Part shown: piece by piece, positions 2,297-60,959 of the stretch
How positions within the stretch are numbered: the stretch's first letter is position 1
Layout of the letters: each line of letters begins with the position of its first letter
Sequence record: MW269952.1
Source: Escherichia phage P479
Reading direction: 5' to 3' (one strand)
DNA length: 64,000 bases
Notes under the pieces: model-generated
What the model was told of the DNA's origin: nothing
Seen by the model: only the letters and a program-made list of their open reading frames with translations
Database searches by the model: none
Program-made: the position numbers and the translations under genes

Positions 2297-2539
2297 ATGG
2301 AAACATTAATTGCGGGTACTGTTGTTCTTGGGGCTGGTTCTTTCTTCCTGGCTGCACTGACATATTTTCTGCCGTGGATTATCGCGCTGCTGCGTGGTAC
2401 CAAAAGTAATTGCGGAATCTTCTTTGTTAACCTCCTGTTAGGTTGGACAATGGTCGGATGGTTTATTGCATTTATCTGGGCACTCGTTGCTGAACGTAAA
2501 TCAAACGCACAAGTAATTATCATCAAGGAAGCAAAATGA
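2297..2539 (+). CDS. imm: Superinfection immunity (Imm)-like small membrane protein
   Basis: 80 aa, two TM helices, GW..AFIWAL motif; sits directly after gene 43 as T4 imm does. Confidence 0.6.
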   Translation: METLIAGTVVLGAGSFFLAALTYFLPWIIALLRGTKSNCGIFFVNLLLGWTMVGWFIAFIWALVAERKSNAQVIIIKEAK

Positions 2540-2679
2540 AGATAATTACAATTATTGTACTGATTGCATTTTTTAGTATGTCAATCTACTGGGCAATAAT
2601 GACTCCACATATGATTCCAACTTTAATTTTGGGTTGGGTATTTTTGGGGCTCCAAGCCCGCTATGAATGTTTTAATTAG
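2536..2679 (+). CDS. small membrane protein (47 aa)
   Basis: ATGA overlap with imm stop; hydrophobic; same AGGAAGCAAAATGAA initiation context as the next gene; not in ORF track (<60 aa). Confidence 0.4.
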   Translation: MKIITIIVLIAFFSMSIYWAIMTPHMIPTLILGWVFLGLQARYECFN

Positions 2680-2687
2680 GAAGCAAA

Positions 2688-3191
2688 ATGAAAAAGTTAG
2701 CTATCGCAGCTGTTATGCTGCTATCTGGTTGTGCTTACCAGGGCGATGTTGTTAATGCCAACGAGATTGGTAAAGCGCGAATTGCTGCAGACCGTCAGGT
2801 GCACAATGGTTCCTTTGATTTCAAAGGTGGTACTGGACTTATCTACAAACGCGACAACAATCAATGTGGAAACAACTGCGCGAAATATGCTCAACAAGAA
2901 ATTGAGTACAAACGCGAGCAAGCTGCGAAGCATGACGAAATCATTGCCAAGCTGGAAGCAGAAACCAAGCGACAAAATGACCTGGATACTGTTAACCAGA
3001 TTTCACAGGTCTGCATGTCATACATCAATATGCAGATAAACATCATGCGCGCAGAAGCTTATCAGGCAGCAGAGACGGGTTCTCCAAAAGCTAATGAGTA
3101 CCGCGATATGTATCAGCGTTCTGCTCAAAACCGTCTGAGCTATATTAATAAATGTGTAGCTAAAGAGAAAGCACGCCAAGGTATTAACTAA
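2688..3191 (+). CDS. putative lipoprotein
   Basis: Signal peptide with lipobox LLSGC; RBS-spaced ATG. Confidence 0.6.
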   Translation: MKKLAIAAVMLLSGCAYQGDVVNANEIGKARIAADRQVHNGSFDFKGGTGLIYKRDNNQCGNNCAKYAQQEIEYKREQAAKHDEIIAKLEAETKRQNDLDTVNQISQVCMSYINMQINIMRAEAYQAAETGSPKANEYRDMYQRSAQNRLSYINKCVAKEKARQGIN

Positions 3192-3212
3192 ACAAACTGC
3201 GAGAAGAATATT

Positions 3213-3341
3213 ATGATTGGTATGTTATTGATTAGCCTATGGTTGTTGTCTGCATTTGGTATTGGTTTTATGTACTGGTGGGACAAACGTCAGACCCGGA
3301 AGATTGTTGAACGTGCAATTAATCGTGGATTCAATCGTTAA
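3213..3341 (+). CDS. small membrane protein (42 aa)
   Basis: RBS GAGAAGAATATTATG; single TM helix; below ORF-track cutoff. Confidence 0.35.
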   Translation: MIGMLLISLWLLSAFGIGFMYWWDKRQTRKIVERAINRGFNR

Positions 3342-3420
3342 TTGCTCTGAAAATACAGTGATATAATTATCCTATCTTAAACCTGTGAGAAAAATATAAT
3401 GGTGCCTATGGAAAAAATGA

Positions 3421-4599
3421 ATGTCTATTGCAGATTTGAAATCCCGTTTGATTAAAGCTTCTACATCCAAAATGACCGCGACTCTTACCAAGTCCAAGTT
3501 TTTTAATGATAAAGATGTAGTTCGTACAAAAATCCCGATGCTGAACATTGCAATCAGCGGTGCACTAGATGGTGGTATGCAGTCAGGTTTGACTATTTTT
3601 GCTGGTCCGTCAAAACACTTTAAATCCAATATGGGTTTAACGATGGTCTCTGCATATATGAACAAATACCCCGATGCAATCTGTTTGTTCTATGATTCAG
3701 AATTTGGTATCACAGAAGCATATCTTCGTGCAATGAAAGTTGACCCGGAACGTGTTATCCACACGCCAATCCAGTCGGTTGAACAATTGAAAGTTGATAT
3801 GGTTAACCAGCTTGAAGCAATTGAGCGTGGTGAAAAAGTCATTATCTTTATTGACTCAATCGGTAACATGGCGTCGAAAAAAGAAACAGAAGATGCGATG
3901 AACGAAAAAGTTGTTGGCGATATGACTCGTGCTAAATCCCTGAAATCTCTGTTCCGTATTGTTACTCCATATTTTAGCATCAAGGATATTCCTTGTGTCG
4001 CGGTTAACCATACAATCGAGACGATTGAGATGTACAGTAAAACCGTTATGACCGGCGGTACAGGTGTTATGTATTCCGCGGACACCGTATTCATTATCGG
4101 TAAACGTCAGATTAAAGAAACTGGTAAAGAACTTGAAGGCTTCCAATTTGTTCTGAACGCCGAAAAATCCCGTATGGTCAAAGAGAAAAGTAAATTCTTC
4201 ATTGATGTAAAATTCGATGGGGGTATTGACCCGTATTCTGGCCTGCTTGATATGGCAATGGAAATCGGATTTGTGGTGAAACCAAAAGTTGGTTGGTATA
4301 ACCGTGAATATCTTGATGTTGAGACCGGTGAAATGGTCCGCGAAGAAAAATCATGGCGTGCAAAAGATACTAACTGCACCGAATTCTGGGGCCCGCTGTT
4401 CAAACACGAACCTTTCCGTGATGCAATCAAACGCCATTACCAACTGGGTGCAATCGATAGCAATGCTGTTGTTGATGCCGAAGTTGATGCGCTTATTGCT
4501 TCCAAGGTTGAAAAATACACTGCTCCTGAAGGTAAGACAAAACCGTCCGCTGCAGATATCGAAAACGATTTAGATATGATGGAAGACCTTGATGAATGA
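3421..4599 (+). CDS. uvsX: UvsX RecA-like recombinase
   Basis: 392 aa; N-terminus MSIADLKSRLIKAS and Walker A GPSKHFKS match T4 UvsX; acidic C-terminus. Confidence 0.93.
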   Translation: MSIADLKSRLIKASTSKMTATLTKSKFFNDKDVVRTKIPMLNIAISGALDGGMQSGLTIFAGPSKHFKSNMGLTMVSAYMNKYPDAICLFYDSEFGITEAYLRAMKVDPERVIHTPIQSVEQLKVDMVNQLEAIERGEKVIIFIDSIGNMASKKETEDAMNEKVVGDMTRAKSLKSLFRIVTPYFSIKDIPCVAVNHTIETIEMYSKTVMTGGTGVMYSADTVFIIGKRQIKETGKELEGFQFVLNAEKSRMVKEKSKFFIDVKFDGGIDPYSGLLDMAMEIGFVVKPKVGWYNREYLDVETGEMVREEKSWRAKDTNCTEFWGPLFKHEPFRDAIKRHYQLGAIDSNAVVDAEVDALIASKVEKYTAPEGKTKPSAADIENDLDMMEDLDE

Positions 4600-4933
4600 T
4601 ATCGATTTATCTGATTTAGATAATTTCGAGAAAGATGCGGAGGGAGCTAAGGCTCCTTCTGTACCTTACTACGAAAAAAGTTTGGAGATTATCCGGCAAT
4701 CCATGGGAACTGTGCGACAGGAAATTCTGTTATCACTCCCTGATGGGTCCAGTCACATTGTGTACGTAACCGGAATTAAAATTGAACCATCTGGAAAAGT
4801 TTCAGTTGATTTCGGCACCCCTTCTGAAGACCGCAAAGCGGAGCTTGCAGTGCATGTAGAAAAGTGTGTTACAATGCAAATACAAGATGAAATTGATAAG
4901 ATTAAAATGAAAAAGAGGTGGTGGAAGTGGTAG
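4589..4933 (+). CDS. 40: gp40-like protein (head vertex assembly chaperone in T4)
   Basis: 114 aa between uvsX and 41; assignment by position and size. Confidence 0.5.
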   Translation: MMNDIDLSDLDNFEKDAEGAKAPSVPYYEKSLEIIRQSMGTVRQEILLSLPDGSSHIVYVTGIKIEPSGKVSVDFGTPSEDRKAELAVHVEKCVTMQIQDEIDKIKMKKRWWKW

Positions 4934-10941: not shown

Positions 10942-11457
10942 ATGGCTCATTTTAATGAATGTTCTCAACTGATTGCTGGTGTTGATAAAGCTCAGGGCGC
11001 TTATGATAATGCAATTTTTGAAGGCACTGACCCACTGCAAGTTATGCTTGATATGCAGAAATCATTGCAGGTTCGTCTGGCTAATGACCGTGATTATTGC
11101 TACCATCCAGATAAATTAGCGACTGCTGGTGATGTTGTTGCTTGGATGCGCGAACAAAAAGACTGCATTGACGATGAATTCCGTGAACTGATTACTTCAT
11201 TGGGTGAAATGTCTAAAGGTGAAAAAGATGCATCTGCTGTCTGGAAAAAATGGAAGGCTCGTTATACTGAAGCGCAAGCTAAACCAATTTCAGAAATGTC
11301 CCCAGAAGACCAGCTTGAAATTAAATTTGAATTAATTGATATCATGCATTTCGTATTCAATATGGCTATTGGTTTGAATATGTCTGCGGAAGAATTGTTC
11401 AAACTGTATTATCTGAAAAATGCCGAGAACTTTGCGAGACAGGACCGTGGCTATTAA
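10942..11457 (+). CDS. 56: gp56-like nucleoside triphosphate pyrophosphatase (dCTPase/dUTPase family)
   Basis: 172 aa from ATG at 10942 (track starts at upstream TTG); all-alpha MazG-like pattern; T4 gp56 is ~171 aa; position between 61 and soc. Confidence 0.7.
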   Translation: MAHFNECSQLIAGVDKAQGAYDNAIFEGTDPLQVMLDMQKSLQVRLANDRDYCYHPDKLATAGDVVAWMREQKDCIDDEFRELITSLGEMSKGEKDASAVWKKWKARYTEAQAKPISEMSPEDQLEIKFELIDIMHFVFNMAIGLNMSAEELFKLYYLKNAENFARQDRGY

Positions 11458-21981: not shown

Positions 21982-22782
21982 ATGATGATTAATGAAGTAT
22001 TCGGGATAATAAAAAATAAATTTCCTGATTATATTCCACCATCGAGTGGAAATAGTGGGATTTATATAATTTATAATTTAATATCTCAAAAATATTATAT
22101 AGGAAGTTCAAATGATTTTCATCGTAGAATTGCCACGCATTTTCGGAATTTATCCAAAGGTGTTGGCATAAACAGCCATTTACAGTTTGCATATGACAAA
22201 TACGGTAAAGAATCATTTGTATGCGAACTAATAGAAAATATAGAAGTTTATAATAAAAAATATTTCTTGAAAAGAGAAAGTTTCTGGATAACTGAATTAA
22301 ATTCTATCAAAAACGGTTATAATATAACGTTGGCGGATTTTGGTGGTGACACAATGTCCAATCATCCAAGAAAAGCGGAAATTAATTTACTTAAAGGCGA
22401 AGCCGTTAAAAAACGGAATAAACTGTTAGATAAAACCGAATATAATAGAATATATGGAACTGGTGTTAAAAGAAAGCCATACCCCGATGATTTTGGTTAT
22501 AATGTCTCCCTGCGTAAAGCAGGCGAAAATCATCATTTCTTTGGCAAACATCTTTCTCTTGAACACAAAGATAAATTATCAAAATTATTCTCTGGTGGTA
22601 AAAATCCCGAGGCTAAAACGTACTCTATAAATGGGGTCATATTCACAACCCGAAAAGAAGCCGCCGAAGTTCTTGGTATTAGTTATCCTACATTACGAAA
22701 ACGCTGCAAATCCGATGATGTAAAATGGTCCAGTTGGAAATGTTTAGGTTATACTAAAAATTTAGAGGTCAAAAATGATTAA
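21982..22782 (+). CDS. GIY-YIG homing endonuclease (Seg-like)
   Basis: GIYIIYNLISQKYYIGSS; AT-rich; basic C-terminal DNA-binding region; overlaps start of gene 39 by 8 nt. Confidence 0.8.
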   Translation: MMINEVFGIIKNKFPDYIPPSSGNSGIYIIYNLISQKYYIGSSNDFHRRIATHFRNLSKGVGINSHLQFAYDKYGKESFVCELIENIEVYNKKYFLKRESFWITELNSIKNGYNITLADFGGDTMSNHPRKAEINLLKGEAVKKRNKLLDKTEYNRIYGTGVKRKPYPDDFGYNVSLRKAGENHHFFGKHLSLEHKDKLSKLFSGGKNPEAKTYSINGVIFTTRKEAAEVLGISYPTLRKRCKSDDVKWSSWKCLGYTKNLEVKND

Positions 22783-27590: not shown

Positions 27591-28565
27591 ATGTTTAATA
27601 TTAAAGCTTTATCCAAATTTGACCAAAACCAGGTAGTTTCTCTTTATAAAACTGGTAATTATACCCAACAGGAACTAGCAGATAATTTCGGTGTATCGGT
27701 TGACACCATTCGCCGCGTTTTGAAAAATGATAAAGAATCAAAATTAGCTAAAACCATTTCTGCATCATTGAAAGCCGCTGTCGGGGTGGCGATTAATGCT
27801 CCAGTGACAGTAACGGTTGAAGTTCCGGTTGTTGAAGATACAATCGGCGGTAGCCGTCCAGAAATCGTATGGAACGCATCAAGCAAATTCGTTTCCATCA
27901 CTGAAGGTCGTACAGTCTGGAACGCAACAAAAGACCATAAACACTTTGATGATATTATTCAGGCATTGATTGAATTCCGTTATGAAGATGCTATCGAGTT
28001 TATTTCAATCAAAGCTGCAGTACAAAAATATGTGAAAGGCGATGTGCGTATTGAAGGTGGTAGTCTGTTCTATCAGGGAATTGAACTGCGCTCCGGCCTG
28101 GTTACTCGTATCATTGATTCAATGCAAAATGGCGAAGACTTTGAATTCTATCTGCCGTTCCTTGAGAATCTCCTTGAGAACCCGAGTGAGAAAGCTGTAC
28201 AGCGTTTGTTTGACTTCCTGGTTGCAAACGATATCGAAATCACCGAAGACGGTCATTTCATCGCATGGAAAATGGTTCGTTCAACCTACAAAGATTGCCA
28301 CTCAAACACATTCGACAACAGCCCTGGCCAATATGTTAAAATGCCGCGCTCTCGTGTGAATGACAATGACGAACAGACCTGTTCAACTGGGCTGCACGTT
28401 TGTTCTAAAGGTTATATCGGAAGTGGCTTTGGCCATGGTGATGGCCGCATCGTATCCTGTAAAGTTCACCCGCGTGATGTTGTAAGTATCCCGGTGGATT
28501 ATGGGGATAGTAAGATGAGGGTCTGTGGTTACCTGGTTCTTGATGATGTAACTGAACAATTCTAA
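27591..28565 (+). CDS. rIIB: RIIB protein
   Basis: 324 aa directly after rIIA (T4 rIIB 312 aa). Confidence 0.8.
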   Translation: MFNIKALSKFDQNQVVSLYKTGNYTQQELADNFGVSVDTIRRVLKNDKESKLAKTISASLKAAVGVAINAPVTVTVEVPVVEDTIGGSRPEIVWNASSKFVSITEGRTVWNATKDHKHFDDIIQALIEFRYEDAIEFISIKAAVQKYVKGDVRIEGGSLFYQGIELRSGLVTRIIDSMQNGEDFEFYLPFLENLLENPSEKAVQRLFDFLVANDIEITEDGHFIAWKMVRSTYKDCHSNTFDNSPGQYVKMPRSRVNDNDEQTCSTGLHVCSKGYIGSGFGHGDGRIVSCKVHPRDVVSIPVDYGDSKMRVCGYLVLDDVTEQF

Positions 28566-28573
28566 ATTAATCG

Positions 28574-28587
28574 GGGCTTCGGCCCCT
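28574..28587 (+). other. GC stem-loop with UUCG loop after rIIB (no T tract)
   Basis: GGGGC-TTCG-GCCCC followed by RBS of the next ORF. Confidence 0.4.
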
Positions 28588-28598
28588 AATGAGGCTTT

Positions 28599-28796
28599 AT
28601 GTTAGGTTTCCAAGCACGTGCAGTTGAAGAACATGACCAGCTGGTTTTGAAAATCAATGCTCTTGAAGAATTTATTAAGGGCGGTGTTTTTGAAACTCTC
28701 GATGCTCGTCAACAAGGTCTTTTGATTGCCCAGTTAGACGCGATGGGCGCATATGCTCATGTACTGGCAACTCGTATCTCTTATTTTGGTGAATAA
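28599..28796 (+). CDS. hypothetical protein (65 aa)
   Basis: ORF after stem-loop, RBS TGAGG. Confidence 0.5.
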   Translation: MLGFQARAVEEHDQLVLKINALEEFIKGGVFETLDARQQGLLIAQLDAMGAYAHVLATRISYFGE

Positions 28797-28799
28797 ATT

Positions 28800-29069
28800 A
28801 TGATTAAGCATTTCAATGTGTCAGACCGTGACATCAAAGTTTCAAATCTCCGGGGTCATCATTATGCAGGAATAGTTTACTGCGGTAAGCTCATCAAGCA
28901 TGAAGGTGATGTTCACTATGGTTGGTTGGAATGTGATGAAGTAGTTGTTGGGGAATTCCCTGACCCGGATTCTGATACATTTGATGCTCATGACCGTTTG
29001 TATTATGGCGAGCTTCACATCCGTGGAATCGTCGGTATCGATGAGGTCGTAAATGATTCAGAAGAGTAA
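28800..29069 (+). CDS. hypothetical protein (89 aa)
   Basis: ORF. Confidence 0.5.
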   Translation: MIKHFNVSDRDIKVSNLRGHHYAGIVYCGKLIKHEGDVHYGWLECDEVVVGEFPDPDSDTFDAHDRLYYGELHIRGIVGIDEVVNDSEE

Positions 29070-29646
29070 AACATGGGAGCATCTGAAAAAGATGCCCTCC
29101 TTTCTTTATACAAAGGAAGACTTAAACCCCGAATCCCTGCAGAAGATTGTAGATACTGCCAGGTATTCATTGCGTAAAGACCCAGGTCAGGACCGTGAGC
29201 AAGTCATGCAAAGATGCATGGTTGCTACAATGGCTGAACAAGCTATTGCTAAATGGACCTCCGGTTTTTTATGTGGCGGCGATGAAGATTACGATAATCC
29301 TTACTCCTTTGCATTTGATGTAGTTTCGAAGGAAGGGGTAAGAATCGAAGTCAAGACCCACCAGTCTGGTTCCAAATGGATATCCGTGCATACTGGCCAC
29401 CAGGGCGATTATCCGCATGGTTACGGGATTAATCTTGGGCCATTTATGCAGCACAAGCTTGCTGACCTTATGATTATGCTCGATGTAAAAGAGACTCACA
29501 AAGGTTATAGATTTAAACCAAAATTCCTTGCTGGGCCTGGTGCTTTCGTTCCTGAGTCTGGTCTTGTGCAGAAGTCACAAGGGGATGGTTGGTACCTCCG
29601 TTCTTGTTCAGAAGAAAAATTTCCCTATCACCGGTTTACAAGCTGA
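29053..29646 (+). CDS. putative PD-(D/E)xK-type nuclease (197 aa)
   Basis: FDVVSKEGVRIEVKT resembles a D...E-x-K core; occupies the T4 denB position. Confidence 0.35.
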   Translation: MIQKSKTWEHLKKMPSFLYTKEDLNPESLQKIVDTARYSLRKDPGQDREQVMQRCMVATMAEQAIAKWTSGFLCGGDEDYDNPYSFAFDVVSKEGVRIEVKTHQSGSKWISVHTGHQGDYPHGYGINLGPFMQHKLADLMIMLDVKETHKGYRFKPKFLAGPGAFVPESGLVQKSQGDGWYLRSCSEEKFPYHRFTS

Positions 29647-29693
29647 ACCAACTGTGTAATAATGTCCTCATACCAACAAATGAGGACATTATC

Positions 29694-29969
29694 ATGGAAC
29701 ACGTTACTACTCACAACATCAAACAAATTCTTATCCAAGCACTCAAAAACAACAACATCAATTTTCCAACTCATGAAATTTTTGATGTAACATTCAACGA
29801 AGTCCAGGGTCAAGTTGCATATTATGACGTTATTGTTTATCTTTCAGAATTTGAAGTCTACCACCTGACTGAAATTGCTTTATATCTCTATCGCGGGACT
29901 GCAGATTTTACTGGGGTTGTGAATGCGGTTGGTGCATATAAAGAAGTTAAAGAACAAATGCACAATTAA
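29694..29969 (+). CDS. hypothetical protein (91 aa)
   Basis: In-frame ATG after a 10-bp hairpin. Confidence 0.45.
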   Translation: MEHVTTHNIKQILIQALKNNNINFPTHEIFDVTFNEVQGQVAYYDVIVYLSEFEVYHLTEIALYLYRGTADFTGVVNAVGAYKEVKEQMHN

Positions 29970-30044
29970 AAAGTAGTGTACATCAGTATGGAGTCAGTGC
30001 ATAATGGCTTCATACTGAGTTACCAAACAGTCTGGAGAAACAAA
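29968..30044 (+). promoter_or_regulatory. early promoter cassette
   Basis: AAAAGTAGTGTACA; CATAAT 30000-30005; box TCATACTGAGTTAC; RBS GGAGAAA. Confidence 0.6.
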
Positions 30045-30308
30045 ATGAAATTTAAATTTTACTATGTCAAGCATAAAGTTACTGGGGAATTTGTTGCATC
30101 CGCGACCTTTGTCACCGGCGAAGGCGATACATACACCACAATGTTTTTATCAAAATGGGAATCAGACCAACCATATCTGTCAACTCGCGAAGACCTTCAA
30201 CGTTTGATTGATGGGCAATATAATAATTCCTGGTCCATTGATGTGTATAAATGTATTCAACATGCAATTGTTGAAAATCAACTTGAAATCATTGAGGTGG
30301 AATTGTGA
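30045..30308 (+). CDS. hypothetical protein (87 aa)
   Basis: ATG after RBS GGAGAAACAAA; track start 29976 is a GTG inside the promoter. Confidence 0.5.
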   Translation: MKFKFYYVKHKVTGEFVASATFVTGEGDTYTTMFLSKWESDQPYLSTREDLQRLIDGQYNNSWSIDVYKCIQHAIVENQLEIIEVEL

Positions 30309-30391
30309 GCAGCAGAACCTGGTGTTTTATCTGGATGTTGTGCATCCCAGTAATTTGTGTTTGTTTTAGTTTATTATTATTGAAACTTGCA

Positions 30392-30453
30392 TAAAAGAGT
30401 GTACATCTCCGGTGGTTGTAGTATAATGAACCTATCAACTACTGGAGATGATT
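30392..30453 (+). promoter_or_regulatory. early promoter cassette
   Basis: GTGTACA 30399-30405, 17 bp, TATAAT 30422-30427; box CCTATCAACTACTGGAG. Confidence 0.6.
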
Positions 30454-31370: not shown

Positions 31371-31820
31371 ATGTCTACTTACATGACCCGTCGTGACGTA
31401 CTGAATGCTGGCGCTACTACTGTTGCTTACATCCATAATGGTAATTATGTTGCAGGGCGCCCAACTAAAGAAGCTGTCACTCAACCAGGTTTTTATTTCG
31501 TGGTTAAAGGCGAAGGCGAATCACGTATTGTTGCTGCACGTTTTTATGTTGGTAACCAACGTTCACAACAAGGGTTTGACACTGTATTAAGTCACATCCG
31601 CAAACAACGTTCACAACTGTCGCGCACAATGGCGAACAATGGTGTTATCTATGAAGTCCTGTTTGTTCCAGTTTCTAAAATGAAACCTTTGACAACTGGT
31701 TATGGTAAAGGTCAAATTGCGATGGCGTTCACACGCTCACATAGTTCTGATTGTCAGACCCTTTCAGAAATGAATCGCATGCTTGCTGATAACTTTAAAT
31801 TCATTCTACAGAGCTATTAA
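31371..31820 (+). CDS. ndd: Ndd-like nucleoid disruption protein
   Basis: 149 aa (T4 Ndd ~151 aa); [10 protein letters not shown] and [11 protein letters not shown] recalled as Ndd-like; between rIIB and 52. Confidence 0.5.
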
Positions 31821-37439: not shown

Positions 37440-38240
37440 TTATAACCAACGCCCGTAGATTGTACCTGTGGCACCCCATGAAGGAGAACTTCCTGCAACT
37501 GCTGCGCCAGAACCGCCACCGGCTCCAACTTTAAGAACCTTACCCCCATCCGACCATGCGTCTGCACCATTACCGCCAGCATCACCGCCCCGACCTGAGT
37601 GGGCGTTACCATAATCGTATCCACCGCCAGGGCTTTCATAAGAAGCACCGCCGCCGGAATACCCGCCACCGCCGCCAGGGCCAAATGGACGTCCACCACC
37701 ACCACCGATATCTTGCCAGTTGGCACCTGAGTGAGGACGATACGCAATGCCGCCGCCGCCGCCGCCACCGCCACAGATAACCCCATAGTTCCATATATGA
37801 AGTCTGCCACCAATATCGTTTACAATGCAGTCACCACCCCATTGACCGTTACCGTCGCCACCTGAATGGGTCCATCCGCCGTGGCCACCTCGACCCCACA
37901 TATGAACCCCACCATGAATATTCAAAGTAACATATTCGTTAGGTGTGTCGGCCTTCATAAAGAACAATGGAACATCACGGGTATAAGATACCAAATCACC
38001 TGTGATATTAAACACAATAGGCGCACTACCGGCTTCAAAGCAACGGTCGCGGAACCATTGGCCGTTAAAGTTATGGTCTGCTCCAAGTGTATGAATAATT
38101 TCTCTTGAGCGACCTGCAAATTGACTCATCCAGCAAGGAACACCTAATCTTAATTGACCAGCTGCTTGACTCATCCAGCGCTGGCCCGTTTCATTTACGG
38201 CTGAACTTCCAATCCAGCCAGGAACACCAACTACTGCCAT
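37440..38240 (-). CDS. 38: gp38 receptor-binding adhesin (T2-type, glycine-rich motifs)
   Basis: 266 aa with poly-Gly tracts between variable segments; directly downstream of gp37. Confidence 0.8.
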
Positions 38241-38254
38241 AATTTATCTCCAAA

Positions 38255-38267
38255 GGGGCAAAGCCCC
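38255..38267 (-). other. stem-loop between genes 37 and 38
   Basis: GGGGC-TTT-GCCCC then TTTGGAG RBS of gene 38. Confidence 0.4.
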
Positions 38268-38273
38268 TTGTTG

Positions 38274-41200
38274 TTAGAATTTAAAATAATTACTAATTTT
38301 GCGAGCAATTTTAGTGAAGAAAGGCGTTTTTAATTCTTTAATTTCTTCACTCATTTCCTGAATAGCCTTAATTAAAAGAGCATTCACAGCAGAGTTAGAA
38401 ATTGTTAAAATCTCTTCTGGGTTATCAAGAGATCCGACATTAGAAGTGCTAACAGCGTCCGGTAATACTTCTTGCAAATCCTGTGCGATAATACCAATCT
38501 CATGGCCGATAACTTCGCGGTCAGAAAGAGATTTAACTTTATCATAGGTTTTAACTTTGAGTTTATTTACCTTATCCACCGCATTCTCTTCGTAGTCTTC
38601 AACATTAATTTTCAAACGACGGTCAGAACGAATATAAACGTCGTTACAATATACAGAAGCACTAGATGTGAAATCACCATTTGCAGACCATTCGTACCAG
38701 CCGCCTTTGTTCATATGCATCATTACGGTAGCGTTACCACCGCCAGCATGAACACCCATTGACGCAAGATAATCAGCACCCCAATGAACTGCTTTCCAAA
38801 TTGAATATGCTTGGTTTTGTGAATCCTGACAGTCTACCAACAATCCAGCCGGGCGATCTCGCCAGTCTACCCATGCACCACCAGAAACTTCACCGCGAAT
38901 AAGCCCTTGATCTCCGGCAAAAGGAACACGCTCTCCCGCTTTAATCATTGCACCCTGGAAGTGATGACTAAATGAACCCCCATGATTATTTCGTATATGT
39001 AAAATACCCTCATCTGTAGCCCAGATAACAGCCTTTTCTGCATCGCTATCATCTTTAAACCAGATGTGGCGAGCGCCAGCAGAGTTTTTGATGGTTATTC
39101 CGGAAGGTCCATGCGCAGTAAAATTGCCAGCAACATCAAAATTCAAACTGTTATCTGTCCTGCGTTCCGTATAGAAGTGATAACCTTTGGAATCACTGAC
39201 TTCCATCACTGCCGCGCGACCAACTTCTGAATTTCCCCAATTATTAATAGAGAATCGTTCAGAGCTATTATTCATCTGATTTAGGTATAATGTACCATCA
39301 GTGAATGTTTCGCCAAAGAAACGAGTTTTAATTGCACCTGTCGCTAAAGTACGTTCAGTGGAAAAATGGGCGCCTTGACTATCTTCTAACTGGATGATGT
39401 TATCACGAGCGTTATTGCTATCACCCCAATGGTTAAATTTAAAATAATCTCGTGATCCTAAACGTCCGGCGTCAAAAGTCATCAAGCCTTTCATGTTAAT
39501 ATCACCGCCGACCAGAACGTTATCCGGGAAGTTAACTGTACCATCAGCATTAAATCTTGATGTATGGCCCTGTGTTCCATCTTCTTTGATATGGTGTATC
39601 ACGAATGTACCTGAATTAATTTCAGTACCTAAAGACCAAACTGCTTTACCTTGAAGGTATTTTTGCTTAACAATCGGATAATATTTGTTTACAGCATCAT
39701 CATCGATTTCCTGGAAAATAGGAGCTGCTTGAACATACTGAATATCATAACCACCAGCGCCTGCGCCATGACCAGTAAATTTAATATAGCCGTTTGCTGC
39801 GAACGTATTGTAACTTGATTGTAAATCTGGAATAGTAACTTTACCAGTATCTAAAGCTATACTAAACGGGCGAAGTGGACCGATATCGCCATGTTTACCT
39901 TCACCGTAAGCAGTTGGAATAATATGAAGACTTCCTTCTGAACGTCTAAAAATGACCCCGTAATCGTTGTTCCAGATGCGGAGCCCGTTAACAGCACTTG
40001 TAGTAATTTCACCAGCGGTGTGGACCGCTCTATCAACCAAAATATCTTTTTTAACAACAAGATTTTCGTTAATAGTTTGTTGCCCATTTAATACAGCCTC
40101 AATGGTATTATCTTTATTGCGCTGGATATAATGCATTGTGCCAGTGACATCAGATATTTCCATTATGTTTTTACGAGTACCATCTACTGTATTAAAGGTG
40201 TTACCCCACACAGAAAGCCTCATATCATCAACAGAACTTTGTCCTGATGTATTTCCTTTAAACACCAAAGAAGATGAACTAGCTTGTCCATCAATAGCAA
40301 TTAGTCCGCCGCGAACATCAAGATTGCCAGGAGTAACCAACAACCCGCCATGAGTGTTAACGTTTGTTACACCTTTGCCACGAAAATAATGGTGATATTT
40401 GCCGCTTTGGTGATAACCTAAAAGAGTTTGACCGTCGCCGAAGCCGTTTTTATCATTAGTAGTATTAACAATAACTAATGGGTAGTTTTGAGTTGTAGGA
40501 AGAATTAAATCAGAACCGTTGGTTGAATAACCCGCAACTAACTGTTTAAGGCTTGTAACTTCAGTTGGAGTTGTAAGTAAAGTATAAGCTCCATTATTAA
40601 TTGTATGGAACTGGCCGTCTTGTCTCCATTTCAGACCGGTGTCATTATCGCCTAAAGCAATAGAACCTTTACCTAAGGCAGAACCGACCATCGGCCCGGA
40701 TTCAATACCTACTGCAATAGAATGTCCTGCCTGTAAGCCGCCGGAATAAGAAAATGACAACATGTACTCTGTTGGGGTCGAACCCGAATACCAACTTATG
40801 CCATTATTTTCGCAAATTTCATGAAGTATTGCAGATGCCGGGTCGGTACGTACAACGCGCAAATAGTTTTTATCCGTGACAGAATTATTATTTGCTAATG
40901 AAGATATATCGTAATCGCCAATATTCTTACTGTCTGCATTAACAGTATTAGTATAAATTACTGGAGATTTTACCGATGTTCCGGCGGAAATAGACGGAGC
41001 ATAAAATAAACCGTCGCCGTTGAATGCAAAAATATTAGATGTTGAATTAGTGTAATCCTGAACACGAACGTTCAAGATTTGCTTGGTATCCCCAGCACGG
41101 TTTTGAGAATAAATTATACCTCTTTCGCGGGCATCAGCCAAATCCTGGAATCGAACATGCGCAGTACCATTAGCACGTACCAAAATCTCGCCCATATCCG

Positions 41201-41519
41201 TCATTAGGCGAGATTTTGCTGTGACATCACCAGTTGCTGTTATACTACCAGTAGTAGTAAAATGTCCAGACGTTTGTGAAATGGCTCCGGCTATAGTATA
41301 GGTACCGGTTTGGGTGTAATTTCCTTTATGGATAACGTTACCATCGATATTACCACCTTTAGCAAAGCCAAGGTCGATGATGGCGCCGGTGTCATCTTTA
41401 GTAAAAAGTAAGCGGTCTTTCAGGTTGATAGCCAGTTCACCTTCAGCAAGAACTGTTGGCGCCGGGCGAACGCCGGCAACCTTACTTCTTTTAAATTGTA
41501 TTTGTTTTAAAGTAGCCAT
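38274..41519 (-). CDS. 37: gp37 long tail fibre distal subunit
   Basis: 1081 aa; N-terminus MATLKQIQFKRSKVAGV; position after gp36. Confidence 0.88.
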   Translation of the reverse strand: MATLKQIQFKRSKVAGVRPAPTVLAEGELAINLKDRLLFTKDDTGAIIDLGFAKGGNIDGNVIHKGNYTQTGTYTIAGAISQTSGHFTTTGSITATGDVTAKSRLMTDMGEILVRANGTAHVRFQDLADARERGIIYSQNRAGDTKQILNVRVQDYTNSTSNIFAFNGDGLFYAPSISAGTSVKSPVIYTNTVNADSKNIGDYDISSLANNNSVTDKNYLRVVRTDPASAILHEICENNGISWYSGSTPTEYMLSFSYSGGLQAGHSIAVGIESGPMVGSALGKGSIALGDNDTGLKWRQDGQFHTINNGAYTLLTTPTEVTSLKQLVAGYSTNGSDLILPTTQNYPLVIVNTTNDKNGFGDGQTLLGYHQSGKYHHYFRGKGVTNVNTHGGLLVTPGNLDVRGGLIAIDGQASSSSLVFKGNTSGQSSVDDMRLSVWGNTFNTVDGTRKNIMEISDVTGTMHYIQRNKDNTIEAVLNGQQTINENLVVKKDILVDRAVHTAGEITTSAVNGLRIWNNDYGVIFRRSEGSLHIIPTAYGEGKHGDIGPLRPFSIALDTGKVTIPDLQSSYNTFAANGYIKFTGHGAGAGGYDIQYVQAAPIFQEIDDDAVNKYYPIVKQKYLQGKAVWSLGTEINSGTFVIHHIKEDGTQGHTSRFNADGTVNFPDNVLVGGDINMKGLMTFDAGRLGSRDYFKFNHWGDSNNARDNIIQLEDSQGAHFSTERTLATGAIKTRFFGETFTDGTLYLNQMNNSSERFSINNWGNSEVGRAAVMEVSDSKGYHFYTERRTDNSLNFDVAGNFTAHGPSGITIKNSAGARHIWFKDDSDAEKAVIWATDEGILHIRNNHGGSFSHHFQGAMIKAGERVPFAGDQGLIRGEVSGGAWVDWRDRPAGLLVDCQDSQNQAYSIWKAVHWGADYLASMGVHAGGGNATVMMHMNKGGWYEWSANGDFTSSASVYCNDVYIRSDRRLKINVEDYEENAVDKVNKLKVKTYDKVKSLSDREVIGHEIGIIAQDLQEVLPDAVSTSNVGSLDNPEEILTISNSAVNALLIKAIQEMSEEIKELKTPFFTKIARKISNYFKF

Positions 41520-52339: not shown

Positions 52340-54115
<1,776 letters not shown>

Positions 54116-54116
<1 letters not shown>

Positions 54117-55012: not shown

Positions 55013-57268
55013 ATGCAAGTACAAAAAAGTAGTGGTGTATCTCAAGATTTTGATGGCCAGAAAATTATTAAAGTTCTTTCTTGGTCATGTGAAGGAACCA
55101 ATATCGACCCATACGAATTATACGAAACAATCAAACCACATCTGCGCGATGGCATGACTACTCGCGATATTCAGACGGTTATCATCAAAGTGTCTGCTGG
55201 GCTTATCTCGGTTGAAGAACCAGATTACCAATATGTTGCAGCCAAAGCTACGATGTTTGCTCTGCGTAAAGATGTTTATGGACAATTTGAGCCGCGTTCT
55301 TTTATTGACCAGATTTCTTATTGTGTTAATGAAGGCAAATACGACCCGGAGCTGTTGTCAAGCTACTCGGCCGAAGAGATTACTTATCTGGAATCTCGTA
55401 TCAAGCATGAACGTGATTTTGACCTGACTTATGCAGGCGCGATGCAACTTAAAGAGAAATACCTGGTTAAAGATAAAACCACTGGTAAAATCTACGAGAC
55501 TCCACAATTCGCTATCATGGCTATCGGCATGGCACTGCACCAGGATGAACCAACGGACCGCCTGAAGCACGTTTGCCGTTTTTATGATGCAGTATCCACC
55601 CGACAGGTTTCGTTGCCCACACCTATCATGGCGGGCGCCAGAACACCTACCAGGCAGTTCAGTTCCTGTGTGGTTATCGAAGCGGCTGACTCCCTGAAGT
55701 CAATTAATAAGACTGCTAATTCAATCATCGAATATATCAGTAAGCGTGCAGGTATCGGTATCAACGTTGGCATGATTCGTGCCGAAGGTTCGAAAATCGG
55801 TATGGGCGAAGTCAAGCATACTGGTGTTATTCCGTTCTGGAAACATTTCCAAACGGCTGTTAAATCATGTTCACAAGGTGGAATCCGTGGCGGCGCTGCT
55901 ACTGCTTATTATCCTATTTGGCATTTGGAAGTTGAAAATTTACTCGTTCTGAAGAACAACAAGGGCGTTGAAGAAAACCGCATCAGACATATGGACTATG
56001 GTGTCCAGCTGAATAACCTGATGATGGAACGACTGGCTAAGAATGATTACATCACTCTGTTTAGTCCACACGAAGCTGGCGGTGAATTGTATTATTCATA
56101 TTTTGATAACCCGGATAAATTCCGCGAGTTATATGAAGCCTTAGAAAAAGACCCGACGGTTCGTAAGAAGCGCATCAAAGCAAAAGATGTATTCGAATTA
56201 TTCATGACCGAACGTTCCGGTACAGCCAGGGTTTATCCGCAGTTCGTCGATAACGTGAATGACTACACTCCGTTCATCCGTGACAAGGCTCCGATTCGTC
56301 AATCAAACCTTTGCTGCGAAATTGCAATCCCAACTACTGATGTGAACAGCGAAGACGCTGAAATCGGATTGTGCACATTGTCTGCATTTGTTCTGGATAG
56401 TTTTGACTGGCAGGACCAAGATAAGATTAACGAGCTAGCCGAAGTTCAAGTTCGTGCACTTGACAACCTGTTGGACTATCAGGGTTATCCGGTTAAAGAA
56501 GCTCTGAAAGCCAAAAAACGCCGCAACCTGGGTGTTGGGGTTACTAACTATGCTGCATGGTTGGCAAGCAATTTCGCTTCCTATGCTGATGCAAATGATT
56601 TAACGCATGAACTGTTCGAGAGATTACAATATGGCCTTATCCGTGCATCAATCAAGCTCGCCAAAGAAAAAGGACCTTGCGAATATTATTCAGACACTCG
56701 TTGGGCTCGAGGCGAATTACCTATCGACTGGTACAATAAAAAGATTGACCAAATCGCAGCTCCAAACTACGTTTGTGACTGGGCGCAGTTGCGGGAAGAC
56801 CTGGTTGAATATGGCATCCGTAATAGCACATTATCAGCACTTATGCCTTGTGAGTCATCTTCCCAAGTTTCTAACAGTACAAACGGTATCGAACCTCCGC
56901 GTGGACCAGTCTCTATTAAAGAGTCAAAAGAGGGTTCCTTTAATCAAGTCGTGCCCAATATTGAGCACAATAAAGGATTGTACGATTACGCATGGGTGCT
57001 AGCTAAGCAGGGTAACAAACCTTATCTGACCCAAGTCGCGATTATGTTGAAATGGATTTGCCAGTCGGCATCAGCAAACACGTATTATGACCCGCAGAAT
57101 TATCCGAAAGGAAAAGTTCCGATGTCAGTTATGCTTGACGACTTGATGTATGGTTGGTACTACGGAATCAAGAATTTTTACTATCACAATACTCGTGATG
57201 GCTCGGGAACAGACGATTACGAAATCGAAGCTCCTAAAGCAGAAGACTGCTCCGCCTGTAAACTGTAA
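55013..57268 (+). CDS. nrdA: Ribonucleotide reductase large subunit NrdA
   Basis: 751 aa; N-terminal ATP cone; class Ia core incl. NLCCEI; terminal Cys pair. Confidence 0.93.
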   Translation: MQVQKSSGVSQDFDGQKIIKVLSWSCEGTNIDPYELYETIKPHLRDGMTTRDIQTVIIKVSAGLISVEEPDYQYVAAKATMFALRKDVYGQFEPRSFIDQISYCVNEGKYDPELLSSYSAEEITYLESRIKHERDFDLTYAGAMQLKEKYLVKDKTTGKIYETPQFAIMAIGMALHQDEPTDRLKHVCRFYDAVSTRQVSLPTPIMAGARTPTRQFSSCVVIEAADSLKSINKTANSIIEYISKRAGIGINVGMIRAEGSKIGMGEVKHTGVIPFWKHFQTAVKSCSQGGIRGGAATAYYPIWHLEVENLLVLKNNKGVEENRIRHMDYGVQLNNLMMERLAKNDYITLFSPHEAGGELYYSYFDNPDKFRELYEALEKDPTVRKKRIKAKDVFELFMTERSGTARVYPQFVDNVNDYTPFIRDKAPIRQSNLCCEIAIPTTDVNSEDAEIGLCTLSAFVLDSFDWQDQDKINELAEVQVRALDNLLDYQGYPVKEALKAKKRRNLGVGVTNYAAWLASNFASYADANDLTHELFERLQYGLIRASIKLAKEKGPCEYYSDTRWARGELPIDWYNKKIDQIAAPNYVCDWAQLREDLVEYGIRNSTLSALMPCESSSQVSNSTNGIEPPRGPVSIKESKEGSFNQVVPNIEHNKGLYDYAWVLAKQGNKPYLTQVAIMLKWICQSASANTYYDPQNYPKGKVPMSVMLDDLMYGWYYGIKNFYYHNTRDGSGTDDYEIEAPKAEDCSACKL

Positions 57269-57909
57269 TGAATTATCAAAACATTTATAATAATTTAATA
57301 TCCCGGGGTAAAACCCGGGAACCTTTAACTGAGTATAAAGAGATTCATCATATTATCCCAAGATGTATGGGTGGCACTGATGAAAAGACAAACCTTGTTG
57401 AGTTAACAGGCCGCGAACATTTCATTGCACATTGGCTTCTTACAAAATTTACCAATTCTGCTGGACTTAATCAAGCCTTTGGTATGATGTGTCTTACCAA
57501 TAAAGGTAGACAATACAATGTTTCTTCTAGACTATACGAAATTGGCAGAAAGCTTTTATCGGAGTCTATGACAGGACGAAAAATGTCTGAGGAAACTAAG
57601 AAGAAAATTAGTGAGACTCTTAAAGGAAGAGAATTCACAAAAGAGCATATTGCTCGTATGCGGAAGCCAAAAACTGAAAAAGCCAAAAAGAATATCGCTG
57701 CAGCTAAGGTTGGTGCGCTTAATCCAATGTATGGTACAATATCTCCAACAAGAGATGTTCCACATACAAAAGAAACATGCGAATTGATTTCTTTAAAAAC
57801 CAAACAAGCCACTGATTATCCGCCCTGTCCACATTGTGGTAAAAAGGTCAATAAGGGTAACGCATTGAGATGGCATTATGATAAATGCAAATTTAAGGAC
57901 TTAAAATGA
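57268..57909 (+). CDS. HNH homing endonuclease (MobE-like) with NUMOD3-type repeats
   Basis: EIHHIIPRCMGG..NLVELTGREHFIAHW; repeats GRKMSEETKKKISETLKG; Zn-finger CPHCGKK; wedged between nrdA and nrdB. Confidence 0.8.
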   Translation: MNYQNIYNNLISRGKTREPLTEYKEIHHIIPRCMGGTDEKTNLVELTGREHFIAHWLLTKFTNSAGLNQAFGMMCLTNKGRQYNVSSRLYEIGRKLLSESMTGRKMSEETKKKISETLKGREFTKEHIARMRKPKTEKAKKNIAAAKVGALNPMYGTISPTRDVPHTKETCELISLKTKQATDYPPCPHCGKKVNKGNALRWHYDKCKFKDLK

Positions 57910-60725: not shown

Positions 60726-60959
60726 ATGTTAAACTTAATTACAAATGAAAGAGTTACACAGGCATATGGTGACAGTAATGACGGAATCTATGTCTACAAG
60801 GGAGACCGCCGGATTGGTTTCATTACTGACCTGAAGGCCAAATTGTTAAAAGAACTGAAAGCTCAAACAGGTGATTCTGGGTTTAGAGCAAGAGCCAAAA
60901 AGAAAGATGAACGCCTGGGTGCCAACTCTTTTGGTCCTAGAGGTTACAACCGCTACTAA
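60726..60959 (+). CDS. hypothetical basic protein (77 aa)
   Basis: Shares DGIYVYKG..GF.TDL N-terminal module with the next ORF. Confidence 0.5.
   Translation: MLNLITNERVTQAYGDSNDGIYVYKGDRRIGFITDLKAKLLKELKAQTGDSGFRARAKKKDERLGANSFGPRGYNRY

Follow-up and report, generated by a model that had tools for sequence, protein, structure and literature searches.

Endonuclease IV of phage T4, the product of denB, requires a divalent cation, prefers single-stranded DNA and cuts 5' of deoxycytidine (dC); it spares T4 DNA carrying glucosylated hydroxymethylcytosine (glucosyl-hmC) and its expression kills E. coli (PMC1635256). Its restricted, polarised dC-specific cleavage is governed by Ser176 (PMC2175332). 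The T2 enzyme cuts the multicopy single-stranded DNA of retron Eco2 upstream of dC and thereby triggers the defence, and escape mutations were found in T2 DenB at G71, G180 and W181, including G180E and W181* (PMC12916289). Here we describe an open reading frame (ORF) of this family at 29053-29646 of a 64,000-nucleotide stretch of Escherichia phage P479 (sequence record MW269952.1), which we call the window. We think it likely that the ORF encodes a T4-type DenB that cuts dC-containing single-stranded DNA, and that modified cytosines in the phage's own DNA, possibly 5-methylcytosine (5mC) made by its thymidylate synthase (TS) homolog Td, let it carry the nuclease without harm.

That denB is found in the genus Gaprivervirus without gp42, the deoxycytidine monophosphate (dCMP) hydroxymethylase, is a paradox that has been noted before (PMC8056088, PMC12115623). 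According to the same two papers, these phages need a non-canonical base to replicate, yet no known enzyme makes one. Krischvirus and Pseudotevenvirus, which are T4-like phages with unmodified cytosine, have neither denB nor alc (PMC12115623 Table 4).

An ortholog of T4 DenB in the window

29053..29646, plus strand: denB ortholog (DNA endonuclease IV), 197 residues; an ATG-to-TGA ORF identified by phrog_1360, identity to T4 DenB, annotation in VR7, SP18 and CJ20, and its substitution ratios

The ORF is real and comprises exactly 197 codons on the plus strand, from an ATG at 29053 to a TGA that ends at 29646. It had been described in the initial annotation as a nuclease in the position of denB, whereas our comparisons show it to be the denB ortholog itself. 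Residues 1-196 aligned with positions 1-203 of the PHROGs profile phrog_1360 ('DenB-like DNA endonuclease IV'), a full-length match (E 2.6e-80), and BLASTP against T4 DenB gave 46% identity over residues 9-182 (E 3e-58). The closest homologs, 95-99.5% identical, carry a denB or endonuclease IV annotation in the Gaprivervirus phages VR7, VR25, SP18 and CJ20, and tblastn found homologs in 1090 phage records. No significant match to a curated family was obtained in Pfam-A or NCBIfam, and PHROGs alone names the ORF. A precomputed PF26887.1 tag was present on 25 of 25 database homologs. By homology, the ORF is thus identified as the Gaprivervirus ortholog of T4 DenB, an ordinary and already annotated gene.

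Pairwise ratios of nonsynonymous to synonymous substitution (dN/dS) among five Gaprivervirus denB alleles were 0.015-0.096 at dS values up to 0.33, and the ORF was unbroken in 34 of 34 close relatives. Within the genus, denB is under strong purifying selection.

A Shine-Dalgarno sequence (GAGG) lies 8 nt 5' of the ATG, and the start overlaps the preceding 89-codon ORF by 17 nt. In the SP18 record, denB is annotated from an internal Met (555 nt; 778-1332 of that record), while other records favour the 594-nt ORF. We prefer the start at 29053 because the N-termini of this protein and T4 DenB align.

Predicted fold, active site and specificity residues

29314..29358, plus strand: PD-(D/E)xK catalytic core FDVVSKEGVRIEVKT, residues 88-102, with D89 at 29317-29319, E99 at 29347-29349 and K101 at 29353-29355
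29236-29238, plus strand: helix glutamate E62
29575..29595, plus strand: C-terminal specificity and DNA-binding segment from S175 to Y181 (KSQGDGWY), which matches T4 Ser176 and T2 G180/W181 in the alignment with T4 DenB

The peptide of the catalytic core is the one from which a D...ExK nuclease core had first been proposed. Across 26 aligned homologs (39-98% identity), E62, G71, D89, R97, E99, K101, T102, H103, D138, S175, G179 and Y181 were invariant. An AlphaFold2 model built on this alignment was confident (mean predicted local distance difference test score 89.7, predicted TM-score 0.87). It placed E62 on a long helix and D89 and E99-x-K101 on consecutive strands, and showed the alpha-beta-beta-beta-alpha-beta core of the superfamily, with the Asp at the end of strand 2 and the (D/E)xK on strand 3. 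The model matched the PD-(D/E)xK enzymes SwaI, NhoI, Eco15I, DpnI, PvuII, MutH and Hjc, the top Foldseek matches being NhoI and Eco15I (E 3e-4, probability 0.99-1.0). Structure prediction therefore bore out the proposed nuclease fold, and we found no homology to a non-nuclease family.

A profile search of PDB chain sequences yielded only chance-level matches (e.g. LSP1 and PIL1), and searches of Pfam-A, NCBIfam and the PDB sequences linked the protein significantly neither to a curated PD-(D/E)xK family nor to any solved structure. DenB is therefore assigned to the superfamily from fold and motif only. As modelled, it is a small metal-dependent PD-(D/E)xK-type nuclease, with E62, D89, E99 and K101 as predicted catalytic residues. 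This fold class is not new, since the conserved PD-(D/E)xK motif of DenB was already published in 2025, with AlphaFold models and alignments, in a study of retron Eco2 (PMC12405507).

The window protein keeps the equivalents of T4 Ser176 and of T2 G71, G180 and W181, namely S175, G71, G179 and W180. S175, G71, G179 and Y181 were among the residues invariant in the 26 homologs, and W180 is present in the window protein's own sequence. Nothing in this sequence points to a different chemistry or specificity. By homology to the T4 and T2 enzymes, DenB would be made early in infection and would cut single-stranded DNA 5' of unmodified deoxycytidine, and together with DenA, Ndd, Alc and the gp56 dCTPase it would help to destroy host, plasmid and other cytosine-containing DNA. 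A different specificity or an anti-defence role had initially been considered likely for this protein, on the premise that the phage has ordinary cytosine DNA. As that premise is contradicted by the data described below, and as the specificity residues are conserved, there is no need for either.

A T4-like gene set without the hydroxymethylase

The window comes from a T4-like coliphage of the genus Gaprivervirus, in the group of VR7, SP18, VR20 and CJ20 (Straboviridae, Tevenvirinae). Megablast of 28500-30400 gave 34 records at 90-97% identity, and 1-25000 gave the same phages. The gene run of the window includes gene 43, rIIA, rIIB, denB, ndd, gene 52, the tail-fibre genes, frd, td, nrdAB, denA, alc and pseT. 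The following features bear on the state of the DNA.

2297..3421, plus strand: slot of T4 gene 42 and beta-gt, here holding imm (2297-2539), 42.1 and a 167-residue ORF, followed by uvsX (3421-4599); read from the ORF list, and annotated alike in VR7
10942..11457, plus strand: homolog of gene 56, the dCTPase/dUTPase that clears deoxycytidine triphosphate (dCTP) from the pool in T4; 77% identity to T4 gp56 over all 171 residues
59111..59521, plus strand: homolog of denA (endonuclease II, GIY-YIG); 71% identity to T4 DenA; PF01541
60973..61476, plus strand: homolog of alc, whose T4 product shuts off transcription from cytosine DNA; 55% identity to T4 Alc; PF17527, E 2.5e-50
31371..31820, plus strand: ndd (nucleoid disruption), a synteny anchor and part of the set that attacks host DNA; 61% identity to T4 Ndd; PF06591, E 8e-69

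Tblastn with T4 gp42, alpha-gt, beta-gt, arn and dam found no match in the window or in the complete VR7 genome. When the complete VR7 genome was searched with phmmer, with a hidden Markov model (HMM) of the TS family and with a gp42-type HMM, td alone was found; the controls, T4 gp42 and fHyAci03 gp078, were detected. As far as homology searches reach, gp42 is absent from the window and from VR7, and it is this absence that makes denB look paradoxical. VR7 also encodes cd (86% identical to that of T4) and gene 1.

The window thus fits the type of a cytosine-DNA phage in having no gp42, alpha-gt or beta-gt, and fails to fit it in having conserved denB and alc. In a study of bacteriophage exclusion (BREX), VR7 DNA is described as unglycosylated with modified cytosines, and the legend of Fig. 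S4 sets VR7 ('has modified cytosines') apart from T4(147) ('hydroxymethylated') (PMC6326788). The initial annotation had taken this for a probable cytosine-DNA phage, a view that is at odds both with the presence of gp56, Alc, DenA and Ndd, the T4 machinery with which cytosine DNA is not tenable, and with what is reported for VR7. It had also pointed out that a nuclease with the specificity of T4 denB would be self-destructive in such a phage. The puzzle was well seen, in that gp42 is truly missing from its T4 slot, and it had been published before; it is the premise of unmodified DNA that is contradicted. DenB would not be self-destructive because the phage's own cytosines are probably modified, as reported for the genus member VR7.

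The 167-residue ORF in the gene 42/beta-gt slot (2688-3191) has a lipoprotein-like N-terminus (MKKLAIAAVMLLSGC) and is common to VR7 and JS98. It gave no Pfam match.

An aspartate in the thymidylate synthase homolog

53256..54116, plus strand: td, the sole TS-family gene, a candidate dCMP C5-methyltransferase, with Asp187 encoded by GAC at 53814-53816
52678..53259, plus strand: frd (dihydrofolate reductase), its last 4 nt shared with the start of td; T4 Frd is 65% identical

The td product matched PF00303 (E 6.5e-91) and has its other TS motifs intact (DRTGTGT, LPPCH, RSVD, GNTHIY and the C-terminal MAV). At the position of E. coli ThyA Asn177, the residue that specifies deoxyuridine monophosphate (dUMP), however, it has Asp187, the local sequence being GLPFDIGSY as against GLPFNIASY in T4 td. 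The same residue corresponds to Asp179 of T4 gp42. No second TS paralog was found in VR7 by tblastn of its td against its own genome. Liu and Santi in 1992, and Hardy and Nalivaika in the same year, reportedly converted TS into a dCMP methylase by the Asn->Asp mutation. This effect of the substitution has also been described together with metagenomic contigs, in which Asp at 177 tracks cytosine-modified DNA (PMC8670742).

We surveyed this residue in the best 120 homolog clusters from a collection of 5.8 billion proteins. Asn was present in 115 of them, including those of Tequatrovirus phages, S16, RB33 and Dhakavirus Bp7, and Asp in five, of which four were from Gaprivervirus (all of the genus) and one from an uncultured relative, a 5.4-kb contig with frd-td synteny. 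Asn was kept in all 116 gp42-type relatives checked (the 115 clusters and Acinetobacter phage fHyAci03), and T4 td, which was read separately, also has Asn. The td identity was at least 85.7% in 32 Gaprivervirus records and fell sharply, to at most 69.9%, in all others. In the Logan SRR24146912 contig, an uncultured T4-like sequence with frd-td synteny, a 292-residue Asp-type Td (3953-4831) is just 67-69% identical to Gaprivervirus Td and so may represent an additional lineage.

Among T4-like phages, Acinetobacter phages 133 and ZZ1 are the others reported to have no gp42 while keeping denB, alc and 56 (PMC8056088). We found Asp in the td of both (GKPFDIASY in 133 and GMPFDIASY in ZZ1). In the complete genome of phage 133, td was the sole TS-family ORF in HMM scans in which the positive controls were detected. 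The control Acinetobacter phage, fHyAci03, has a gp42-type gene beside sugar-pathway genes and a td with Asn. Phage 133 Td is 59% identical to the Asn-type Td of fHyAci03 versus 51% to that of the window; the Asn->Asp switch therefore has at least two origins, each accompanied by the absence of gp42. Judged from these sequences, the 'thymidylate synthase' of Gaprivervirus is probably a dCMP methylase.

A possible route to self-protection

The route to the modification that we find most likely would be as follows. The gp56 enzyme would turn dCTP into dCMP, which Td(Asp) would methylate to 5-methyl-dCMP with formation of dihydrofolate, the latter being recycled by the product of the adjacent frd. 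The gp1 kinase and the host nucleoside diphosphate (NDP) kinase would raise 5-methyl-dCMP to 5-methyl-dCTP, to be incorporated by the phage polymerase. The resulting genome, fully substituted with 5mC, would be spared by DenB, DenA and Alc, while host and foreign cytosine DNA would be cut by DenB. Since Td is the only TS-family gene of the genome, it may also have to supply thymidine monophosphate (dTMP) indirectly, and dTMP might come from deamination of 5-methyl-dCMP by Cd, as the substrate range of dCMP deaminase would suggest, or from host ThyA. CpG methylation is reported to relieve Alc (Kashlev 1993, cited in PMC8056088), in line with this scheme.

Taken on its own, the proposal that the protecting group is 5mC and that Td(Asp) makes it has, in our estimation, an even chance or slightly better of being correct. 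It may extend beyond the genus: Gaprivervirus and, independently, phages 133 and ZZ1 could be T4-like phages in which the hmC pathway was swapped for complete substitution with 5mC, a generalisation whose prospects we consider evenly balanced. If it is right, DenB, DenA, Alc and gp56 were retained because they still tell self (5mC) from cytosine DNA.

Several points speak against protection by Td-made 5mC. A fully 5mC-substituted genome would be a target for McrBC, McrA and Mrr. Some Gaprivervirus members are nevertheless listed with K-12 MG1655 as host, and tblastn with T4 arn revealed no Arn homolog in the window or the complete VR7 genome. Protection from DenB is shown in the literature for glucosyl-hmC DNA only, and not for 5mC (PMC1635256), and at 46% identity to T4 DenB the sequence preference of the window enzyme may have shifted. 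The claim for VR7 comes from the summary in the legend of Fig. S4, the underlying digests being with EcoRII, SalI and Csp6I, with or without T4 beta-glucosyltransferase (PMC6326788), and on the chemical identity of the modification in VR7 or Gaprivervirus we found nothing in the literature beyond 'modified cytosines'. A natural Asp variant of Td could also form a product other than 5-methyl-dCMP, or keep activity on dUMP. As to the Acinetobacter phages, the lack of gp42 in ZZ1 is taken from PMC8056088, with 47 kb of the ZZ1 genome examined here, and Table 4 of Petrov 2010 lists a gene 42 allele for phage 133. The whole-genome HMM scan did not confirm that allele, and the table may have counted the Asp-type td.

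Alternative explanations

The alternative that survives best retains the dC-specific DenB and ascribes the protecting modification to some other, unrecognised enzyme, the Asp in Td being incidental, as for instance in a TS with relaxed specificity. Two papers do postulate that Gaprivervirus has a modification protein not yet known (PMC8056088, PMC12115623), the legend that mentions VR7 leaves the nature of its modification unspecified (PMC6326788), and many ORFs specific to the genus have no assigned function. Yet those longer than 100 residues offered no candidate, as they are homing-type nucleases (HNH, GIY-YIG or T5orf172), DUFs or small proteins, and in two or three lineages, independently of one another, Asn->Asp goes along with gp42 loss, which is hard to put down to chance. 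We therefore consider this explanation unlikely.

The following ORFs were examined individually as modification enzymes and rejected: VR7 ORF135c and ORF292c (HNH-type), ORF148c (T5orf172), ORF136c (DUF7275/7277) and ORF006c (EndoVII-type), the window ORF at 21982-22782 (GIY-YIG), and VR7 ORF134c, ORF149c, ORF239c and ORF232c, which are proteins of unknown kind. VR7 ORF147c, annotated as 'similar to cytidine/deoxycytidylate deaminase', was rejected because it has no H/CxE...PCxxC motif.

Ordinary cytosine DNA, from which a nuclease of different specificity or with an anti-defence role would follow as in the initial annotation, appears very improbable to us. It could account for the absence of gp42 and both glucosyltransferases, and the moderate identity of the window protein to T4 DenB, with its 15-residue C-terminal extension, leaves some room for a changed enzyme. 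Against it stand the reported cytosine modification of VR7 DNA (PMC6326788), the conservation of the specificity residue Ser176, the absence of denB and alc from the T4-like genera that do have unmodified cytosine, and the retention of gp56 and Alc, both of which are lethal for cytosine-DNA T4.

Finally, denB might have outlived the hmC pathway as a decaying or inactive relic. This idea has nothing in its favour except the loss of gp42 in the genus, and in view of the low dN/dS, the intact ORF in all 34 close relatives and the invariant catalytic residues we reject it as scarcely credible.

Surroundings of denB and other features of the window

27591..28565, plus strand: rIIB, a synteny anchor; phrog_609, E 3e-103; 62% identity to T4 rIIB
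28599..28796, plus strand: denB.1 homolog, a small upstream ORF transcribed in the same direction as denB; PF21825 and phrog_774; annotated in VR7
28800..29069, plus strand: DUF7418 ORF, which overlaps the denB start; PF24193 and phrog_2237; annotated in VR7

The early-region order rIIB-denB.1-x-denB...ndd-52 agreed with the T4 and VR7 annotations when the ORF maps were compared. denB does lie between rIIB and the Ndd-like gene, as first noted, without being adjacent to either: two small ORFs separate it from rIIB and five from ndd.

Immediately 3' of the denB stop codon, at 29652-29697, there is a stem of 13 perfect base pairs with five further pairs (RNA folding free energy -20.2 kcal/mol, z -4.5 relative to shuffled sequences). 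A GAGGA Shine-Dalgarno sequence lies in its 3' arm, which extends to the ATG (29694) of the next ORF (91 residues, phrog_17571). This stem could be an element of translational control or of RNA stability.

Directly 5' of alc, a 77-residue ORF (60726-60959) corresponds to the first third of Alc (PF17527, E 7e-11), is 64% identical to T4 Alc residues 3-35 and is annotated in VR7 too (ORF243c). By its sequence it is a partial duplication of alc.

At 21982-22782, between 39.1 and gene 39, the window has a 266-residue homing endonuclease of the GIY-YIG/I-TevI type. This gene is missing from VR7, which has an unrelated EndoVII-type ORF at the same spot, so that this looks like a hot spot of mobile nuclease genes. 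Between nrdA and nrdB, a 213-residue ORF (57268-57909) is 41% identical to the HNH homing endonuclease MobB of T4; VR7 has no ORF at this position. The receptor-recognition module at 37440-41519 (minus strand) differs from those of VR7 and T4, its gp37 being just about 34% identical, and for a 266-residue ORF downstream of gene 37 tblastn found no counterpart in either VR7 or T4. These differences point to an exchange of the cassette for adhesin and host range.

Significance and comparison with known systems

The denB ORF itself adds little that is new, being a correctly annotated ortholog of a fold class published in 2025. What is new, and testable, is the proposal of 5mC made by an Asp-type Td, which gives a concrete candidate answer to the question left open in PMC8056088 and PMC12115623. 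If true, it would mean a new DNA chemistry among the T-even-like coliphages used in therapy and in screens of defence systems, and would correct a widespread mis-annotation as 'thymidylate synthase'. It would predict sensitivity to McrBC- and MspJI-type systems, would define the C5 substituents that DenB, Alc and DenA tolerate, and would imply that a simple C5 methyl group blocks Alc and nucleases of the DenB family. As DenB triggers retron Eco2, Gaprivervirus phages should be sensed by this retron.

Compared with restriction endonucleases of the PD-(D/E)xK superfamily, DenB is a distant case. Against R.SwaI (5tgq), NhoI (8q5n/8rpx), the N-domain of Eco15I (8q5m/8q5o), DpnI, PvuII, MutH and Hjc, sequence identity was just 7-16% and TM-scores were low (0.3-0.5), which means that only the core is common to them and DenB. 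The restriction enzymes read a recognition site in duplex DNA, whereas for DenB the substrate is single-stranded and the target one nucleotide, dC.

The T4 and T2 enzymes are much closer. They are orthologous to the window protein (the 46% identity extends across all of T4 DenB), occupy the same genomic position, share its E...D...ExK core and have the same partner genes (denA, ndd, alc and 56). The window protein differs from T4 DenB in being 12 residues longer, and its 15-residue C-terminal extension (RSCSEEKFPYHRFTS) is common to many homologs outside Tequatrovirus. The genome around it has neither gp42 nor glucosyltransferases, so the base that this DenB must spare is not glucosyl-hmC.

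The window Td resembles the TS mutants L. casei N229D and E. coli N177D and the dCMP methyltransferases of the XP12 type, from phages in which 5mC takes the place of C, in belonging to the TS family, in having Asp at the pyrimidine-specificity position and in retaining the other catalytic motifs and the TS C-terminus; in addition, its gene adjoins frd and a dCTPase is present. Unlike the engineered mutants, the window Td is a natural variant; it falls within the T4-type td clade and has 65-70% identity to the ordinary Td of T-even phages. The RB69 homolog of gp42 was recently shown to be a 5-hydroxy-dCMP synthase and not a hydroxymethylase (PMC13326640), which makes TS-family annotation in T4-like phages an unreliable guide to the modified base. 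T4 gp42 itself, which acts on dCMP, shares with the window Td the TS fold and the Asp (D179) at the equivalent position, whereas all remaining motifs of the window Td, among them the Cys-His pair and the C-terminal MAV, are those of a canonical TS.

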